DNA of 64,000 nt, taken from contig OX597831.1 of the NCBI GenBank assembly GCA_951406725.2, positions 19,344,001 through 19,408,000 on the forward strand, given 5' to 3'. The first letter of the stretch is position 1. Each line of letters begins with the position of its first letter. Under the pieces are notes generated by a model that ran no database searches, was not told the origin of the DNA, and saw only the letters and a program-made list of their open reading frames with translations. A program made the position numbers and the translations under genes. Below are positions 30,993 to 63,816 of this stretch, one piece after another. Origin of the DNA: Octopus vulgaris. Lineage: Eukaryota.

Positions 30993-30994
<2 letters not shown>

Positions 30995-31092
30995 CGGGAA
31001 GCTTTATGAAAATAAACAAAAGACGAAGGCTGGTGGAATATAAACAAACAATTGTATTAGTATGGCGCTCAGGAATATAAATAAAACAAATC
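30993..31092 (-). mobile_element. Family A fragment within (TA)n
   Basis: aaaataaacaaaagacgaaggctggtgga..attagtat..cgctcaggaata matches 50018-50110. Confidence 0.8.
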
Positions 31093-31881: not shown

Positions 31882-31949
31882 ATGTGTGTGTGTGTATGTG
31901 TGTGTGTGTATGTGTGTGTGTATGTGTGTGTGTGTATGTGTGTGTGTGT

Positions 31950-32079
31950 GTTTCCGACGAAGTGCTCCGCTCGAAACGTCAAACTCTCCTTCTTTCCTTC
32001 TTTCCTGAGCGTCCAATAATACTATATATGTTCCACGTCCTCGCGTTGTTGTGTTTTTTGTGCTTTCATGTTTGGATTA

Positions 32080-32083
<4 letters not shown>
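31950..32083 (+). mobile_element. Short element related to family A with a minimal hammerhead-like motif
   Basis: gttt-CCGACGA-a-gtgc-tcc-gctc-GAAAC-GTC-aaac (31950-31984), then ttcctgagcg; flanked by (TG)n and (TA)n. Confidence 0.65.
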
Positions 32084-32113
<30 letters not shown>

Positions 32114-45942: not shown

Positions 45943-47605
45943 TCTTACGATTTTTCTTCTCCTCCTCCTCGTCCGCATTTTTTCTACCTCCATCACTAAC
46001 CTTCGTTTTTCTCTTCTTCTCGAGCATCACTCATTATTATCATCGTCATCATCGCCGTGATTATTGCAGTCGTCATCATTATCAACATCATCGTAGTTGT
46101 CATCAACCTTGTCGGCGGCGTCGAAATTGTTGTTGTTTATTATGGTCGTCATCATCGTCGTAACCTCCCCATCATCATTATACTCAAGAACAACACCATC
46201 ACCATCTGCCTCCTCATAATCCTTTTCTGCTTTAGGCACAAGGCCTAAATTTCGGATTGAAGGCCGGTGGTTGATTACATCGATGCAAATATCGCAACAG
46301 GTACGTATTTTATCGAATCAGAAACGGCAAAAGCAAAGTCGACATGGCCAACATTAGAACCCACAAACTCTAGTCTGACGGAATGACGCGAAACACGTTG
46401 TTCGTCGCCTTCACCTTGCTTTTCACATTGAAAGAGAAAAATGTATATATCATCCGTACTATACGTATTTATCTAACCAAGCGCACAAAATCGCAGAGCC
46501 AAACATGTATGTGTATATATGTATTTGTATGTGTATATGTATACATCTCTTATGATAAAAAGCAGATTTTCTCTGCCAGTTCCCATGTTCCTTTTTAATA
46601 CAATTCTACAATATAGAATTCCTTCAATTGGAATTTACCTATGATTTTTCCAAGTAGATTCGATTGGGTCATGGCATAAAAAGTTTTTTTCAATTTGACC
46701 CCCAATTAAGCAAAAATTCGAGAAAACTCAATACTTTACGATTTCCCTCTCTCATTTCAAGTGGTTTACTCCTGCTATTACTTCTCATACTTTCTCTTTG
46801 CAAGTGTAAAACTATCAAAGTGAAAGTATTATATAACAGGGATGAGACATTAATACTGGTCATCCTTTTTGCAAGAGGAAGATTCGCTATGGTCTTATAT
46901 GCTACACCACTGGTTTTCAATTCATATTAACCAAATTAATATTAAATTTTTCACCCTTATTATGTGTGTGTGTGTGTGTATTAGCAATTCGTATAAAATT
47001 GCATCAATGACTTGAACTTGAATAAGTGGTTTCACATAAATGGGGATAATTTAAAAAGGTTTGTTGTTATTATTATTACTGTTTGACTATTGTAATCATG
47101 TTTGTTGGTTCCTCGTCAGGGAAACGTTGTTGTGTTACATTTGTTAAATATTTGTAAACCGTAACCCTCCCCCTTTCGGAGAAGGGGCTTTGGTTATTGT
47201 TTAAAAATTGAATTGTGTCCCTGTTTGGGGAAATTGGCAATATTTTCACCGTCTTTGTGGAAGCATTTTTGTTAAAATGCCTTCGATAGAAGAAAGTACA
47301 AAAATGAATTTCGCTGCAGCAGTACACTTCTATACAAGAGGGAGGACAAGATCCAATTGATCGAAATTGCAAGAGACGGGCATACAATTCCAGTCTGGTA
47401 TATATTTTGAGTATTGTTATCACTATCGATATCAAGATATAACTTTGTATTTTGTATTTTATGTGTAGATGTATATATGTAGATGTACATATAATATGTA
47501 CACATATATATGCACATATATATACATGCATAATATATCTACCCATACACACATACGCACACACACACATACACACATACTTAGGGGCAGGTGTGGCTGT
47601 GTGGT

Positions 47606-49960
47606 AACAAACTACGTTCGAAGATACTGTACCTGATATGGGCGGTAATGCCTTGCCGGTCTATGGTCGACCTTCAACAAACCGGGAAGGCACAAACACT
47701 CTGTCTTCACATTTGCTGCGTGAGACATGTTTTAATGTTGACGAGCTTGCCGACAATGAGCCAAAGCTCCTTCCAGAACAGAAGTTCGCTTACAACTCCG
47801 TTGTTAATTCAGTCCGGGCCAAAGCTGGGGGGATTTTTTTCTGGACGCTCCTGGGGGCACTGGGAAAACTTTTGTCAACAAATTAATATTGGCTGAGATT
47901 AGGCAAACACAAGGCATTGCCCTAGCTGTGGCATTATCTGGAATTGCGGCTACTTTGTTGCCAGGCGGCAGGACAGCTCACTCCACTTTCAAGCTCCTGC
48001 TTGACTTAGCGAAGACTGAGACACCAACTTGCAAAATCAGTAACAGCTCCGGTCTTCAGACGATGCAAGCTTATCGTTTGGGATGAATGCACGATGGCCC
48101 ACAGAGGTGCTCTTGAGGCACTAGATAGATCTCTCAGAGACACCAAACACTCTTCAGCTCCCATGGGAGGCATAACACTTCTTCTTTCAGAGGACTTCCG
48201 ACAAACACTTCCCGTTATTCCCAAAGGGACTAGAGTTGATGCAGTAAGTCCGTGTCTTAAGTCATCCACAGTGTGGCCACTGGTGAAGACTCTCAAACTT
48301 CACACCAATATGCGAGCTCATATGCGACGTGATATCACATCAGCAGCATTTTCTCACACCCTCCTTGCACTTGGCGAAGGCAAAATACCAGGGGATGAAA
48401 ATGGTAATATTGCCATCGATTCCATTTGTACCATTGTTAAAACGCCTTCTGATCTCTGAGATGCAGTGTCCCAGATCTACAAGCTAATTATCAGAATATG
48501 GATTGGATTGGCCAAAGGGCTATTCTGGCCCCGAGAAATAAAACTGTTCATCATATTAATGATGAAATGCTAAAACTCATTCCTGGGGATGTCTATATAT
48601 ATATAGGTCTATCGATACAACTCCTGACCTAGAGGACGTCATCAACTATCAAATAGAGGTACTCAATTCCTTTGAGCCCCTTCGACTACCACCACACATT
48701 CTCAAACTTAAAGTTGGTGCCCCTATAGTGCTCATTAGAAATTTGGTTCCCCCAAAACAATGCAATGGCACACGTTTGATCGTTAAGTCCTTATCTCCCA
48801 ATCTGACTGAGGCCACCATTATCACAGGGTGCGGTCGAGGCAACGTTGTGCTCATACCTAGGATGCATCTTTTCCCATCAGGAGCAGACCTACCTTTCAT
48901 ATTTCGGAGGTCCCAGTTCCAAGTAAGGCCATGTTTCGCAATGTCAATTAACAAAGCGCAGGGTCAAACACTGTCTGTGGCGGGAATTCATTTGGGAGAG
49001 CCATGTTTCTCTCAAGGTCAGCTTTATGTTGCCTGCTCGCGTGTCGGCAGCAACAGTGATGCTTTCGCATTCGTTCCACAACGAAAAACAAAAAATATTG
49101 TGTACAATGATGTTTTATATGATTACTACGTTTCGTCATTTTCGAGCACGTTAGTATTTCACTTACATACGACTCTCTTTTATGATAGCATTTACATTTT
49201 TAGGCGTTTCATTACATTAATTCACACTTAACCAACACCTGTCCTTCGCTCACCTCTATTTCTACCCATTCATCATCAAACCACCAGCCTCATCTTCTAT
49301 ATCCAAAGTACATGACACATCTACCCCCTACATCTACACTCTCACTGTTAAAGTTTACATAAGCGACAACACGATCGCAACATACACTTTGGAAACTAAG
49401 CAACAGATCATTTTATACAACAACAAATTTAATCATAACGCCCATCAATGAAAACATCTCCACCACTGCGTTGTGATTCATCTATTCAGCACCACTACAG
49501 TCTCGCCGGTCTGACATATGGTGAGTAGATGCTATTGTTCTATATTTTATAAATTACCCATATTTACTTACCCATGCTTCATTCTTCTCTTGCCTACATA
49601 GGGCATCCATTCTCTTTTAACACAGTATGAAGTTTTGTAACAGCACATCCGCTGCCGTTCGTGGAAAACGAAGAGACCCTTTTCACCTGCGAACGTTTTA
49701 CACCGCCTTCCACGACTATCAAATTCTTACACTTACGAGAACAATAACATGGCTCTTTTCAAGGCAACCTCGCATTCAATTCTTACACCATTCTACGAAG
49801 GGGTAGGAACCCCTTTACACGGCTTTCTATACACTTACAAATACATTCATTCGCCGGAAACTTATATCAATATTTGCCTGAATAATCATCATAATTCAGT
49901 GCAATCATTAACAGTACTTTCAAGCAATTCAGCCCCGAGCATCGCCAGGCAATTCTGCTA

Positions 49961-49961
<1 letters not shown>
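47606..49961 (+). mobile_element. Helitron 3' half: Pif1-like helicase pseudogene, 3' UTR, hairpin and CTAG end
   Basis: FLDAPGGTGKTF, SGIAATLLPGGRTAHSTFKL, IVWDECTM, DFRQTLPV, LKVGAPIVLIRNL, CNGTRL, FAMSINKAQGQTL, GQLYVACSRV, TKNIVY; terminus cccgagcatcgccaggc..CTAG|T at 49958-49961. Confidence 0.95.
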
Positions 49962-50017
<56 letters not shown>

Positions 50018-50020
<3 letters not shown>

Positions 50021-50214
50021 GGAAGGTTTTCAAAAATAAACAAAAGACGAAGGCTGGTGGAGTACAAACAAACAAATGCATTAGTATAGCGCTCAGGAAT
50101 AGAAATAGAAAAAGTATTTTACGTTTCGAGCCTACGCTCTTCGACAGAAAGATACACAGAAAAAAACAAGGAGAGAAAAAAATGCGTGTAGGAGCTAACG
50201 ATCTATCATGGCCG
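50018..50214 (-). mobile_element. Family A short element in (TA)n with a CUGUCGA hammerhead-like motif
   Basis: Reverse complement of 50117-50150: ttt-CTGTCGA-a-gagc-gtag-gctc-GAAAC-GTA-aaa. Confidence 0.75.
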
Positions 50215-50238
50215 TATATGCATATATATATATATATG

Positions 50239-50609
50239 AGTATACTTTACGTTGTCGAGCGGTTACTGTTTACATCTCGTTCAGAGTTTTATTATCGCTT
50301 GCAGACAGTTTTTCGAAATCAGTGACGGAAGTAACTGGGAAAAACAATAAATAAATATTTGCAAACAGGTCTCCCTTCATCGAAAACCGGTGATTGCCGT
50401 ACGCCGAAGACAGGCAAATACTTAGAAACTGCAGTCCATGCGTGTCACTTAGGTTTACGAGAGAGGGATGACTTCCCTTTGCAAATACCATAAGGTCCTA
50501 GAAAGTGTGCCTAAAGCCAGCTGGAGACGATGATCTCTTGAGGTTAAAAGCTACAGTAACATCCACCCTTAGTGGTTAGCCATATTTTGATGGCTAGTAT
50601 ACTTTACGT
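50239..50609 (+). mobile_element. Retrozyme-like monomer (357 nt plus 14-nt terminal redundancy) in (TA)n
   Basis: agtatactttacgt repeated at 50239-50252 and 50596-50609; collinear homology with the 358-nt unit at 62807-63773; internal hammerhead. Confidence 0.85.
50384..50456 (+). ncRNA. Extended type I hammerhead, slightly decayed
   Basis: aaacc-ggtga-ttgc-cgtacg-CCGAAGA-cagg-caaata-ctta-GAAA-ctgca-GTC-catgcg-tg-tcact-ta-ggttt; palindromic helix III ACTGCAGT; predicted cleavage after 50436. Confidence 0.8.
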
Positions 50610-50617
50610 ATATATAT

Positions 50618-52339: not shown

Positions 52340-53570
52340 ACAGGTTTTTACTTCACTCATTGGGGAACTTGTATACGCTGGCGATTGCGATCTTGTCAGT
52401 CATTCCGAAACATGTTTGCAATCTCTTGTATCTTAAATCGAATGAGCTTGGGATGATTTGGCTTGACCATCATCTGGAAGAAAACTGTTTTAATGCATCA
52501 ACCTGTGTGTGGTGCTGTTTGTAACACTGCTAAAATGTTTGTTAAGAGTAAGTTACATGAGGCTGCCGATTCGTTCATCCACCTTGCAAACTCTGTAGAA
52601 AATGATGGAACTATTGATACAGCGATACATCTGCGAGTTCAAAGGGTAACAAAAGCATTTGGTGGCTTGAGGTCACGCGTTTGGCGCCAGCGACATATAA
52701 ATAAGAATGCAAAGCTGGTTCTTCACAAATCATTTGTCTTACCATCCTTGTTATATTCTTGTGAAACTTGGACTTGTTATGAAAGGCATTTTAAATTGTT
52801 AGAACAATTCCACCACAAATGCATTCATCGCACTTTAAAAATTCAATGGAGTACTTTTACTCCAGACACAGATGTCCTTGCATCTGTAGGCATCACCTCA
52901 ATCAAAGCTATGATTTTGAGGAACCAAATGAGGTGATGTGGCCATATTGTGCGAATCGAGGGTGAACGCATACCGAAACAGCTGTTTTATGGTGCGTTTG
53001 CAGAGGGAAAATGCTATAGGCGTAAACGTAGCAAAAAAAAAGTAAAAGTTTTGAGGATGGCTTAAGGATTACTATGAAGTCACTTGGAATGAATCCAGAA
53101 GACATAGAAACCCTTCCTTTGGATCGAGCTGGATGGCGAACAAAAGTATGGAGTAGAGTGAAAGCGTTTGAAGAGGCCAGGATAACGCATGTAAAACTGA
53201 AAAGAGACCTAAGGAAGAATGTTACGATCCAGAAGGAGAATGACAATGACATTTTTTGTGTGCACAGTTTCTGACAGACCATGACGTCCTTTTGCTGGGC
53301 TCAAATCTCATTTGCGATTCCAGGACAAACGAACTTCCACCAACTATTCTGCCTATATGTCTGTGCACACCTTTGAATGCAGTGTATGCCAGAATGTTTT
53401 CAAATCTAACGGAAGCCTCAAAAGACATTTCAAAATCCACATTGATCAGAGTTTAACTACAGCTCTTGGTGGTCCAACTTAGTTAGGAAATCTAATTGGG
53501 TGTCTTTTCAAAACATTGCCTGATTTAAAAAGCCACATCAAATACCATCATGGTTCTGAGGTGTACGTTC
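52340..53570 (+). mobile_element. RTE-clade LINE, 5'-truncated and degraded
   Basis: YAGD (YADD-like), AFGGLRSRVWRQRHI, VLPSLLYSCETWTCY, LEQFHHKC, R*CGHIVR..RIPKQLFYG, DRAGWR. Confidence 0.88.
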
Positions 53571-55800: not shown

Positions 55801-57397
55801 TTTTTTTTTTTTTTTTTTTTTTCTTCTTTCAAATTTGCTTCCATTTCTTGCTGAGCGTCTTCCCGACTCCTAGGGCAAAGAAACTCATAGTATACATTGG
55901 TAGGCCATTAAACCAAACTCAATAGTTCGTTCATTTTTTTTTAAGTTAAATTAAAATACATGAGCAGCAACAGTTCTCACATCGACAATGCTCTTCTCAA
56001 TACGTGTGATGTACCAGTTAAGACAATCTTTTGCACTTCTTGCAGGGATGGTAAGCCAGGGATCATTCTCATATAATTTTCGGTTCCCTTCTTGATCATT
56101 CCTAGTGCTCCTACGATCACTGGTATTGTAACCGCCTTGAGATGCCACATTTTCTCAATTTCAATGAGTAGGTCTTTATATTTTCTGAGCTTGTCAAACT
56201 CTTTCGCCGAGATATTATGATCACAGGGGATGCTCATGTCGATCAATAAGCAAACTTTATTGTTTTTGTCTTTCACAACAATATCTGGTTTATTGGCTTT
56301 GATGGTTCGGTCTGTATGTACTGGAAAGTCCCACAGAATCCTTACATTTTCTCCTTCAGTTACAGCTTCAGTGTGGTGATTATACCACTTGTCGGCAGTT
56401 TTGATATTGTAATGCCGACTTATTAGCCAGTGTAGATATTGGCCAACTCTGTCATGTCTTAATGTATACTCCACTGGTGCTAAGACTTTACATCCAGAGA
56501 TTAGGTGGTCCACTGTTTCAATCATGTCATTGCAGAATCGGCATTTTGGGTCTGCTCCATTTTTCATTACATTGGCCGGGTAGTTCCGGGTTAATAGGCT
56601 TTGATCTTGAGCAGCCAGGATGAAACCTTCGCTCTCTGCTTTTAGCCCTGAGGTCCGTAGCCACTGATGGGTTTGCTTCTGGTCAACATCAGCTTGTTTG
56701 CTACGGGCCACATATTTGCCATGCAAAGTTTTCTCCTCCCGCCTATTAGCCAATTGCTCGTGCGCTTTTTTCGTTGCCATTATTTTCACCTTCTTTGCAA
56801 CAATAGTTGCCGTACTTCCGTCGGGTTGTTCAGTTTGGGTATCCTGCACATATCAATAGCAAATGTTTTGCTTTCCTTTATGATAGAATGAAGCTTCTTT
56901 CGTCTCTCGTGATTTCCACGAGCTTTAGCATCCAGTCATTCGATATTTCGAGATATTTGGCCAGTCCAATTGTGGTTGTTTTGTAAGCTAGTTCAAATTG
57001 GATCAGGCCTCGACCTCCTTGGGCTCTGGGAAGGTAAAGGTGATCTACGTCTGCCTTTGGGTGGTGCATCCTATTACAACTCAGCAGCTTGCGTATTTTC
57101 CTGTCTATATTCTTTACTTCACTCATATTCCAGTTCAACACATTGTAGCTATAAGTAACAACTGGAACTGCTAAGGAATTTATAGCTAACACCTTGTTAC
57201 GTGCATTTAGTTCAGATTTCAGGACTGCACTAACTCTCCTATAACATTCCTTCCTAATCTTCTCTTTCATGCTTGCATGCTGAATACCAGAGCCTTCATT
57301 TATCCCTAAATATTTGTATGTGTGTTCTTGCTTTATCCCTAAATATTTGTATGTTTGTTCTTGCTTTATCCCTAAATATTTGTATGTTTGTTCTTGC

Positions 57398-57399
<2 letters not shown>
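55801..57399 (-). mobile_element. R4/Dong-clade non-LTR retrotransposon 3' half (RT end, CCHC, restriction-like endonuclease), poly(A)-tailed, in (TAA)n
   Basis: YKYLGI, LNARNKVLAIN, HHPKADVDHLYLPRAQGGRGL, LHGKY, AAQDQ, CRFC..ETVDHLISGC, RHD, KPDIVV..LIDMSIP, K..KY; T-run at 55801-55822; TTA repeats on both sides. Confidence 0.93.
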
Positions 57400-57460
<61 letters not shown>

Positions 57461-57503
57461 ATCATTATTATCATTATTATTATTATCATTATTATTATTA
57501 TCA

Positions 57504-57582
<79 letters not shown>

Positions 57583-57584
57583 CA

Positions 57585-57646
<62 letters not shown>

Positions 57647-57650
57647 ATTA
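57400..57650. repeat. (TAT)n/(CAT)n microsatellite flanking the R4/Dong element
   Basis: ~250 bp trinucleotide tract. Confidence 0.97.
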
Positions 57651-58426
57651 TTGTGGTTCTTTATTTGTCCGAAATTGTTTTCGTGAACCGATTTGGTTTT
57701 ATTTCAATTAATAACAGCTGAAAACTGACGTCATAACCTTGATACAACAAGCCGTGATGAACAACGGTGCTACGACTACCTTCAGGGGTAGTTAGCAGTG
57801 TGCATATTCTCGCTCATTGTTATTAAGAACCCAGAGCAGCATAAATCGATAGAACGTCCACCTATCGTGAAATGATTGTCGATTTCTACTCCTTAGTTAG
57901 TTACGCTTCATGTTAAGAGCAATTATAATTAAAAGGAATATTACCAAAGTAAACAGCAAACAGCCTAAGGAAGTAATTACCTTGTGAAATGAAATTTGTG
58001 AATAGAAACAGTTCAAACGTTTCTGAATCTATTTCACGTGCATAAGGACCATATGAAATTTACAATAGAGAATTGTCTGTAATCAGAGATATTATTTATA
58101 AGTAACTTTAGAAAACCATAAAAATTTACTTATAAAGTATGAATCTAGAAAAAGTTTGATAAAAAGGTTGTAGCGTGATGTTAGTAAATATGTAGACCAA
58201 CTGCACTCATCTTTTGTTTATATTGGTTCCAAATTTTGGCACAAGGACAGCAATTTCCTGGAAGCGGAGTAATGTGGGTAGTGACATCAAACTCCCTTAT
58301 TCGCCAAATACCACACATCTCATTCATAACAGTGTAGCAAAACAGAGGTGCCCCCACTATGGCCACAGCTTTGAGCTGAAACTGATAAAACAATATACAC
58401 GTAAACATATATACATACATATATAA

Positions 58427-61164: not shown

Positions 61165-62962
61165 TGTTTTAATTATTTTCGTTCACTTTACACTAATCTT
61201 CAGAATATAACAGAGGTGTCTTACATTTTCAATAAGATCAGGATTGATCAATTTCTTTCTGTGGAAGGTAGAAATGACATAAATGAAATCTTTCTCAAAT
61301 ACGTCACCTCACGTAAATTATGCCCATATCTATTGTAACCCCTCTTTCCGAAGATAATCTATCTTTGGGAAATCTGAATCCATAGTGTTAATCTCTCCCC
61401 CACCAAAAAACTATCGATTCCAATTCGCCACTGCTGTTGTGCTGTGCCTGTGATAAAAGATTATAGTTTGGATCAAAAATCAAAATTTTCGAAGCCGTGT
61501 GTACGACCTTTGAGTTCCAAGTCTGCTTCGATAATGATGTATGATTTTCCAGGAATGGTGACTGTTTGGGCTGTCTATTTTATGATGGAAAATTGTTAAT
61601 GAGTGCTCTTTCAACTCTGTGTAGTACAAGGTAGTATCTTGAGAGGGGAAATGTTTCACAGTGTCCATTACTGCTTTTTTGTTATTTGAAACAAAATCAG
61701 TGCTGATCGTTCAGGTTTTGTCTGTAAAAGCGTTCCAGTTTTGGTCGTACCATATTTCCTGCAATTGGTGTATTATTTAGGATAAGAACATAGAAAATCA
61801 TCTCACCTTTTGAACTGAAGACTGAATATTTTCTAAACACCAACATAATTATGTTCCCCAGTTTTTTTTTTGGTTTTTTTTTATAAAGTCAGTGCAAAGG
61901 AACATCTCACAATGGATATATGCCCTGCCTAAGTATTAGCGACAATACTGGTCTTTTGCAGTCATACTAAAAGCTGGAATGACTGACATAGTATTGTTGA
62001 CATTCAGAATTGCTTCAAACAAGAATCATTGCCGACAGTTCTTGTTACACCTAGTTCAGAAATAATTCCTTATCAAGCCACCATCATCTTATAAACACAC
62101 CAATCCACCACGGACACCTGTAAGACACCACACCAAAATCCGAACACACTGATAATCCAAATGTTACGTGACTGATTTCTAATATCTCATGAGAAACGTT
62201 ACGACAGAGCGTCGTCGATTCAGGGTGTGTGCATTAGTTCCAATCTGTGCCTTACTGAGAATCTATAAATATTTTGCACTCTATTTCAATCCTGAACAAC
62301 GAACTCCGAAATCATCTCAATAATCCGGCACATGACAGGGGCTGTTTTTTTTTACTTTAGATTGTCGAAAATATTTCGCCATTATGGATAATGAGGAGAG
62401 CTCCAAACATTCAAAATAATGTCAATACCATATTGGTATTTATCTTAAGCTAACAAATAAATTGCATGAAACGTCAGGTGTGACCAAAATAATCATTTCG
62501 TCCCTAAATAAATTTGTTTTAATAAGTGTACAACAAAGGAGACTTTGGAGCACATTTATCGATTAAAAAGTGAATAAACAAAAGTAATCGATACATACGT
62601 GTGTGTGTGTGTACATGTGCGTGTGACCGTTTAAGCGAAGTTGGTGTGTTCACAGTGCCAAACTCTGATAATACCCCCGACCATTCTCTTTTACTTCTCG
62701 TCTTGACTGCTACTCATAATTGTAATTCAGTTCTGGTCGCAGATTTATTGAAATTACATCCTTACGATACATACATGTATATATATATAAATATATATAT
62801 ATATATAACAAAAGGGACATTAGCCATTTGAATGTGGCTAGGGACAGGGCAGGGCGGTGGGGGTGTTACTGATGCATTTAGCCCCAGGCGATCATCAACG
62901 TCACCAGATAGGCTTGACACCATCACGGTGTCCTCTATCCTGCAAAGGGAGATCATTCCCCG

Positions 62963-63038
62963 AAGAAGCGGATGCCACATACGGACCCAGGTTTCAAGGT
63001 GTTTGCCTCTCGTCAACGTATGGTAGGCACCGCCCCTC
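62963..63038 (-). ncRNA. Extended type I hammerhead ribozyme (U3 core variant), copy 1
   Basis: Reverse complement: catacg-TTGACGA-gagg-caaaca-cctt-GAAA-cc-tg-g-GTC-cgtatg, with extended helix I. Confidence 0.88.
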
Positions 63039-63495
63039 GACGAACAACTCTCTGTGCAGGATATTTATATATAGATTTTCACGTAAATACATTTACTGAT
63101 TTCGAAAATCTGTTCGACAGCAATAATAATTCTCTAAACGAGATATAGACAGTAACTGCTCCATAACAAAAGCGACATTAGCCATTTGAATATGGCTAGG
63201 GACAGGGCAGGGCGGTGGAATGATCTCCCTTTGCAGGATAGAGGACACCGAGATGGTGTCAAGCCTATCTGGTGACGTTGATGATCGCCTGGGGCTAAAT
63301 GCATCAATAACACCCCCACCGCCCTGCCCTGTCCCAAGCCACATTCAAATGGCTAATGTCCCTTTTGTTATGGAGCAGTTACTGTCTATATCTCGTTTAG
63401 AGAATTATTATTGCTGTCGAACAGATTTTCGAAATCAGTAAATGTATTTACGTGAAAATCTATATATAAATATCCTGCACAGAGAGTCGTTCGTC

Positions 63496-63571
63496 GAGGG
63501 GCGGTGCCTACCATACGTTGACGAGAGGCAAACACCTTGAAATCTGGGTCCGTATGTGGCATCCGCTTCTT
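63496..63571 (+). ncRNA. Extended type I hammerhead ribozyme (U3 core variant), copy 2
   Basis: gaggggcgg-tgcc-tac-catacg-TTGACGA-gagg-caaaca-cctt-GAAA-tc-tg-g-GTC-cgtatg-t-ggca-t-ccgcttctt; predicted cleavage after 63550. Confidence 0.88.
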
Positions 63572-63771
63572 CGGGGAATGATCTCCCTTTGCAGGATAGA
63601 GGACACCGTGATGGTGTCAAGCCTATCTGGTGACGTTGATGATCGCCTGGGGCTAAATGCATCAGTAACACCCCCACCGCCCTGCCCTGTCCCTAGCCAC
63701 ATTCAAATGGCTAATGTCCCTTTTGTTATGGAGCAGTTACTGTCTATATCTCGTTTAGAGAATTATTATTG

Positions 63772-63816
<45 letters not shown>

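Follow-up and report, generated by a model that had tools for sequence, protein, structure and literature searches.

Retrozyme copies in the window

The window analysed here, a stretch of 64,000 nucleotides of Octopus vulgaris DNA, carries two insertions of short hammerhead-bearing repeat units, which belong to two families and whose parts are collected in Table 1. The family A element at 50.2 kb sits within (TA)n, and the family B locus at 62.8–63.8 kb consists of two arms (414 and 557 nt) placed tail to tail, one ending outward at what we call site 1 and the other at site 2, a layout typical of two-armed insertions. The 358-nt unit of this locus is 65% identical overall to the 357-nt unit of family A. 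A motif scan places in each unit of both families a type I hammerhead with its core, stems I and II and a palindromic stem III; an Rfam scan gave no match at the gathering score. With unit numbering starting at the predicted cleavage site, a hairpin with a GCCA-N8-TGGC core (P3) ends at position 160 in family A and 163 in family B. Stop-to-stop frames of 100–161 aa cross the copies, and tblastn with six PLE proteins found no PLE protein match over the monomers.

Table 1. Parts of the two retrozyme insertions, in positions of the window.
Feature	Positions	Strand	Remarks
Family A insertion, single-armed, 371 nt (357-nt monomer + 14-nt terminal repeat)	50239..50609	+	3' end is site 1
Type I hammerhead motif, CCGAAGA core, palindromic stem III	50398..50442	+	motif scan; predicted cleavage after 50436
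Outer helix P1, 5' strand	50553..50560	+
Hairpin P3, GCCA-N8-TGGC core	50577..50596	+	predicted pairing probability at least 0.99 in circular monomer
Site 1, post-hairpin linker and (TA)n junction	50597..50612	+	junction at 50609/50610
Tail of ~45 nt, internal copy (P1 3' strand, hairpin P4, site 2)	50253..50300	+	read through, not an end here
Family B left arm, 414 nt	62805..63218	-	outward 3' end is site 1 (62805), against (TA)n
Left-arm hammerhead	63022-62978	-
Left-arm hairpins	62840-62821, 63198-63179	-
Family B right arm, 557 nt, 358-nt period	63217..63773	+	outward 3' end is site 2 (63773), against (TA)n
Type I hammerhead motif, TTGACGA core	63512..63556	+	predicted cleavage after 63550
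Hairpin P3, last monomer of right arm	63694..63713	+	earlier copy at 63336-63355
Tail of 44 nt, site 1 to site 2	63730..63773	+	at one end only of the two-armed insertion

The sequence-only reading of this DNA had located the three 3' ends, and its measurements were accurate. In the 50.2-kb copy, 13 nt separate the hairpin from (TA)n; in the left arm of the 62.8-kb locus the distance is 15–16 nt (given as about 15), and the end of the right arm lies another 44 nt out, which puts the ends 173, 179 and 223 nt from the cleavage site (given as roughly 170–220). The partner strand of the outer helix P1 lies beyond site 1, so that in the 50.2-kb copy it is present only at the start of the element (50262–50269). 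A copy that ends at site 1, with half of P1 and all of P4 missing downstream, would thus offer the complete arrangement for re-copying there only as a multimer or circle.

Other mobile sequences are found elsewhere in the window. Hammerhead-bearing or related PLE-type end fragments adjoin (TA)n at window positions 50020–50210 (-), 30994–31085 (-), 31948–32084 (+) and 17817–17770 (-), and the one at 50.0 kb shares its TA tract with the family A copy. Positions 47600–49961 hold a decayed Helitron with helicase-like frames (which we take to be Pif1), whose terminal hairpin and CTAG resemble the 3' end of the Helitron described below. Fragments at 52457–52936 (+) and 55977–57660 (-) resemble what are presumably LINE reverse transcriptase/endonuclease proteins.

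Two insertion end sites across the genome

Genomic copies were chosen by exact short anchor patterns remote from the hairpin. For family A we used one anchor upstream of the ribozyme (30 of its 36 matches) and another just downstream of it (70 of 203), and for family B an anchor upstream of the ribozyme (30 of 53). A whole-monomer BLAST sample was phase-biased, and the 21 elements found by BLAST only were omitted from the end histograms and retained for the TSD, microhomology and arm-identity analyses. With identical elements merged, family A comprised 93 elements with 129 outward 3' ends, of which 63 fall at unit positions 168–179, 51 at 213–226 and 15 elsewhere, and family B 25 elements with 42 ends, 19 at 176–182, 17 at 219–226 and six elsewhere. 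These two intervals, which held 114/129 and 36/42 ends before removal of near-duplicates, were picked post hoc, and the comparison was hence made with the best two intervals under uniform ends, which in 20,000 simulated draws held at most 36 (family A) and 18 (family B). Fuzzy de-duplication dropped six elements with similar flanks, clear duplicates among them being only one or two (one pair, L145/L175), and left 62, 46 and 13 of 121 family A ends at site 1, site 2 and elsewhere, and 19, 16 and 6 of 41 in family B. Consequently 108/121 and 35/41 ends lie at the two sites.

In both families, site 1 is found 8–19 nt past the hairpin and site 2 about 45 nt beyond site 1, and a single end out of 162 lies within 10 nt of the cleavage site. 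The upstream-of-ribozyme anchor, which is able to catch cleavage-site ends, gave 35/42 ends at the two sites and none at cleavage. A histogram of junctions, the check that the sequence-only reading had proposed, therefore excludes both a uniform spread around the monomer and clustering at the cleavage site. The shared 3' end which that reading saw in the window does recur genome-wide, although as two fixed sites and not as one end plus an outlier. Arms longer than one monomer, which read through both sites, make up 52/162, so the template continues past both, as a circle or multimer would.

Two-armed elements account for 33/88 in family A and 17/24 in family B. Where both ends of a two-armed insertion lie at a site, 34/36 pair site 1 with site 2 and carry the tail of 44–45 nt on one side only; 14 further two-armed insertions have one end elsewhere, often slightly upstream of site 1. 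Single-armed copies favour site 1 (43 vs 14). Two arms belonging to the same insertion are closer in sequence than arms taken from separate insertions (98.0 vs 93.0% identity in family B, 95.0 vs 92.3% in family A), which points to a common source transcript or locus and is not proof of one molecule. Across the copies, 5' ends showed no significant general enrichment around the hairpin (21/150 vs 17.2 expected).

Some arms are very short. Eight of 30 free site-2 arms stop after 47–80 nt, at positions 142–176 (L008, L048, L050, L102, L137, L145/L175, L146, with one pair duplicate), and their partner is often about one full turn long (357–377 nt), as if both cDNAs had run on one circle and blocked each other. 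Two two-armed insertions only 3.3 kb apart (L097 and L098) have an identical inner junction (52/334), and the former is the sole case with site 1 at both ends, a pattern that points to subsequent rearrangement.

The hairpin and a larger predicted fold

A third family (E), found by anchoring on the hairpin, has a 369-nt unit which is 53–58% identical to those of families A and B, against 46% for shuffled sequence, and BLAST of its loci gave no match to either. In this hairpin-anchored sample, 15/41 ends lie 8–15 nt past the hairpin and 16/41 at 60–82 nt, so that site 2 is broad and farther from the hairpin than in families A and B, with a tail of about 55 nt, while the offset of about 9–16 nt between hairpin and site 1 is retained in all three. 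One family E monomer (L286) has a CCGAGGA hammerhead core and an extended, self-sufficient stem III in place of the short palindromic one of families A and B.

Searching by flanking motifs only, with the hairpin left free, gave 6,003 matches against 12 for the control, i.e., about 6,000 matches to the domain, in several-unit tandem arrays and as dispersed copies. In the first 30 of these loci, GCCA-N8-TGGC is retained in 27, and inspection indicates that further families stop at the same two places. An alignment of 34 rows (these 30 loci and four of family E) has near-invariant core pairs in the hairpin, with the outer A-U pair broken in 14/33 rows. The sequence TAGCCA/TGGCTA, which the earlier reading took as conserved, thus holds in both window families, whereas more widely it is only the GCCA-N8-TGGC core that does.

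In the enclosing helix P1, one position alternates between A-U (15) and G-C (14). Covariation over the fold is 0.142 against 0.084 ± 0.008 for shuffled alignments, a value reached by 0/500 shuffles, which ignore relatedness, in 34 rows in which the search pattern itself prescribed the core letters of P1. An earlier 24-row alignment, made up without families F and G, had covariation not above the shuffles (359/500). We regard this as moderate evidence for a covarying fold, judged from the alignment, to which the invariant core of P3 contributes nothing. RNAalifold recovered P3 and P4 and did not recover P1. When the window monomers are folded as circles, the hairpin is predicted to pair with probabilities of at least 0.93 and to lie inside P1; folding energies of the whole segments are unremarkable (z of -1.5 and +0.35). 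Site 1 would correspond in this predicted fold to the linker that joins P3 to the 3' strand of P1, and site 2 to the position after a second small hairpin, P4. The P3 hairpin is, by these predictions, one arm of a larger covarying fold; it is probably part of the positioning signal and not the whole, which makes it a good candidate for one component of a larger signal.

Copies of the hairpin carried by a Helitron

The exact hairpin sequence has 6,914 matches in the genome, a number that we rejected as a count of retrozymes, since 21/30 inspected loci are one Helitron-borne fragment. The carrier is a non-autonomous Helitron of about 400 bp which starts with TC and ends with a hairpin and CTAG, followed by T (21/30 loci; L061–L089, e.g., L062:1200-1600). 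It captured a miniature two-armed insertion, with a short inverted site-2 arm, positions 107–171 ending at site 1 and a duplication of about 11 bp, and amplified it to about 3,500 copies, far beyond the parent family.

These copies offer a view of the hairpin with site 1 and none of the rest of the domain. The 3,532 matches to this pattern continue into the Helitron, and three differ after site 1: two of them by point changes within what is still the Helitron, and one by entering a repeat that is presumably SINE-like. The hairpin alone has therefore left at most one visible retro-copy, which counts weakly against its sufficiency, in a search that by our estimate sees under a tenth of the possible ends.

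Target sites and microhomology

A resolvable, non-TA TSD was found in 23/113 family A elements, with a length of 11–16 bp (mode 12), the rest lying in (TA)n or having none evident. The resolved TSDs are AT-rich, and (TA)n adjoins 37/108 site junctions in family A and 31/35 in family B. At the 37 junctions whose position is fixed by a TSD, the overlap between the target and the element sequence that would continue past the junction is 0 nt in 15, 1 nt in seven, 2 nt in nine and 3 nt in six. The mean of 1.16 nt exceeds the 0.70 nt obtained with targets permuted (P = 0.003; P = 0.012 at site 1 and P = 0.035 at site 2), and overlaps of at least 2 nt occur at 9/18 site 1 junctions against 3.7 expected (P = 0.004). 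The overlapping words are diverse (TT, AC, ATT, TG, TAC) and mostly not TA. The short TA microhomology that had been proposed to place the start is consequently retained as a small excess of overlap, but 15/37 junctions have none and the words are not specific to TA. Being modest and varied in its words, pairing seems to nudge the start by a few bases without setting it, and the variety of words, together with the share of (TA)n, points to TA as a preferred target and not as a priming code.

Search for an enzyme partner

The sequence-only reading had also suggested looking for the same hairpin in autonomous PLEs, and this search came back empty. Neither the hairpin nor monomer homology appeared in an autonomous PLE among 50 GIY-YIG loci, taken from the 150 of 6,136 candidates that were scored, and tblastn with six PLE proteins found no RT + GIY-YIG ORF in or linked to the copies among 268 retrozyme/hairpin loci; two of these loci matched, and in neither did the PLE match lie upstream of a copy and run on into it. 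Some PLE ORFs (L221, L235) have retrozyme matches close by, which were considered as pLTRs and rejected, being separate TA-flanked insertions. The retrozyme behaves like a PLE, yet it is not an autonomous PLE.

Of 148 GIY-YIG matches within the 150 scored candidates, 16 belong to 781-aa frames that also contain an RT domain. This PLE (L222:2745-5087, with relatives L223–L230) is young and has a CX4CxxC linker, a type described as a mark of Neptune/Nematis (PMC8557442). Its copies have two ends that are 38 nt apart, located 66 and 104 nt downstream of where a hammerhead-like motif with a variant core (TTGATAA) is predicted to cleave. There is no GCCA-N8-TGGC near these ends and no homology to the monomers, and a PDB search gave no relative of the protein. 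The tail of this PLE contains a small CTCG/CGAG hairpin with TTATTAT after it that recalls P4, a weak likeness for which six post hoc tests gave P values of 0.007, 0.06 and 0.26 over the 40-nt tail and no significance over 140 nt.

Origin of the two end sites

We think it likely that these elements are non-autonomous retrozymes whose two fixed ends arise from a Penelope-type RT-endonuclease, supplied in trans, which starts reverse transcription internally at two points. Internal initiation away from the ribozyme site, as the sequence-only reading had argued, is well supported by the two sharp end sites, the single end in 162 near the cleavage site, the long arms (52/162), the TSDs of about 12 bp and the tail-to-tail, PLE-type anatomy. 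Under such a mechanism, the enzyme would bind a folded domain (P1, P3 and P4) of a circular or multimeric RNA and cut an AT-rich or (TA)n target, with the nicks in the two strands spaced by about 12 bp. The two DNA ends would then prime at different sites, one at site 1 and its partner at site 2, with each primer sliding a few bases to exploit 0–3 nt of chance pairing. When joined, the two cDNAs would give arms placed tail to tail and the tail at a single end; when only one was kept, a single arm would result. Much more tentatively, a multi-helix RNA domain with GCCA-N8-UGGC as its invariant core may dock a dimeric Penelope RT, with each subunit copying the same circular RNA from its own fixed point, one per nicked strand. 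If true, this would be the first defined trans-acting PLE recognition signal, comparable to the LINE-derived 3' tail of a SINE, but internal and usable on a circle.

The version put forward by the sequence-only reading, in which the lone P3 hairpin recruits the enzyme and TA microhomology fixes the start, accounts for the presence of the P3 core in 27/30 loci chosen without it, for its roughly constant distance from site 1 in families A, B and E, and for the (TA)n at 31/35 family B junctions. We nevertheless consider it unlikely, since the distance from P3 to site 2 is not fixed and site 2 lies behind a different hairpin, the microhomologies are mostly non-TA, and the Helitron-borne hairpins with site 1 have produced essentially no such ends in 3,532 matches, which is a weak test. 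The sites might instead be set at the DNA level, as places where the GIY-YIG endonuclease cuts the cDNA or an intermediate at the tail, and not where priming occurs. A staggered cut would also give one site per end, the tail has been ascribed to EN-mediated resolution (PMC8557442), and earlier work cited in PMC11167929 reported that recognition by the Penelope EN depended on the tail. This account is quite unlikely in our judgement, given the microhomology excess at site 1, conserved features that resemble RNA structure, containing G-U pairs as well as compensatory ones, and in vitro RT starts that match the ends of the tail (PMC11167929).

Sharp ends would be expected as well from RNA processing, if template RNAs were cut or terminated at both sites and copied from their 3' ends in the manner of LINEs and SINEs, and family B does have a run of four T at site 1. 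The run is missing from family A and from other B subfamilies, the arms longer than a monomer traverse both sites, and the pairing of site 1 with site 2 is left unexplained, which together make this a very improbable origin. Contigs of four sequencing runs, presumed to be RNA, gave neither ends nor strand for these elements. Finally, the pattern could be an artefact, arising either because a single old insertion was copied together with its flanks or because alignments halt where AT-rich sequence meets (TA)n. Multiplication of that kind is real for most hairpin matches (21/30 loci, by the Helitron) and for at least one duplicate pair (L145/L175), but the Helitron copies stand outside the end counts, the ends lie at G/C-containing positions and are seen again in several families, and flanks and TSDs differ among insertions, so that the artefact is largely refuted and keeps next to no probability.

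Comparison with known systems

Metazoan non-LTR retrozymes and their proposed partnership with PLEs are already published (Cervera and de la Pena 2020, PMC7229834; Li, Clavereau and Pollet 2026, 10.64898/2026.07.22.740005), and hammerheads in pLTRs have been reported (PMC4209133). The octopus elements resemble the retrozymes so described in their type I hammerhead, their head-to-tail unit in the range of 350–390 nt, their dispersed and tandem occurrence and a TSD longer than 4 bp; the units of 357, 358 and 369 nt fall within the 150–450 nt used to delimit retrozymes, and the TSDs exceed the 4 bp required. In Xenopus, 24/57 retrozyme families matched known TEs, nearly all of them PLEs (10.64898/2026.07.22.740005), whereas we found no homology to the pLTR of an autonomous PLE in the 50 octopus GIY-YIG loci. 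Retrozyme RNAs are circular in other animals and are thus without a 3' end, and the available accounts in both retrozyme papers leave priming and genomic pasting open and give no maps of insertion ends, start sites or a cis fold (PMC7229834; 10.64898/2026.07.22.740005). Within the part of the retrozyme, hammerhead and Penelope literature that was covered, we found no published map of retrozyme insertion ends.

The anatomy of the insertions is shared with the EN+ PLE units described by Craig et al. (2021, PMC8557442), which have an inverted 5'-truncated copy, a tail of 30–40 bp often at one end only and a preference for (TA)n, there linked to the CX2-5CxxC linker. Those are coding elements, the non-autonomous examples given in that account being Chlamys types such as MRC1. 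The closest mechanistic parallel is PAc (Poseidon, from Anolis carolinensis), whose purified protein nicks and extends both strands in vitro, and whose RT begins, independently of ribozyme activity, at two adjacent internal stem-loop sites that bound the tail (Frangieh et al. 2024, PMC11167929). Both systems have two adjacent internal starts downstream of a hammerhead with a tail between them, AT-rich targets and an end that cleavage does not define, and in both the two strands would be nicked and extended, as seen in vitro for PAc and as inferred here. PAc, as described there, differs in being autonomous, with starts about 85–90 nt past the cut, and homology-free, whereas the octopus element is apparently non-coding, has its sites 170–225 nt past the cut and shows a weak microhomology bias of 0–3 nt; its tail measures 44–45 nt, or about 55 nt for family E, and a given insertion has its two ends at different sites.

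What is already known is thus the two-site mechanism for an autonomous PLE and the proposed link between retrozymes and PLEs, and the hairpin's role, as read from sequence, is that of a candidate only. The two-site footprint points to a stretch of about 130 nt of RNA and a pair of start positions, and the rule of one site per end suggests how the tail-to-tail insertions of PLEs may originate. Being common to the octopus retrozymes and to the tails of PLEs, this footprint provides direct evidence at the genome level for mobilisation of the PLE type through internal initiation.
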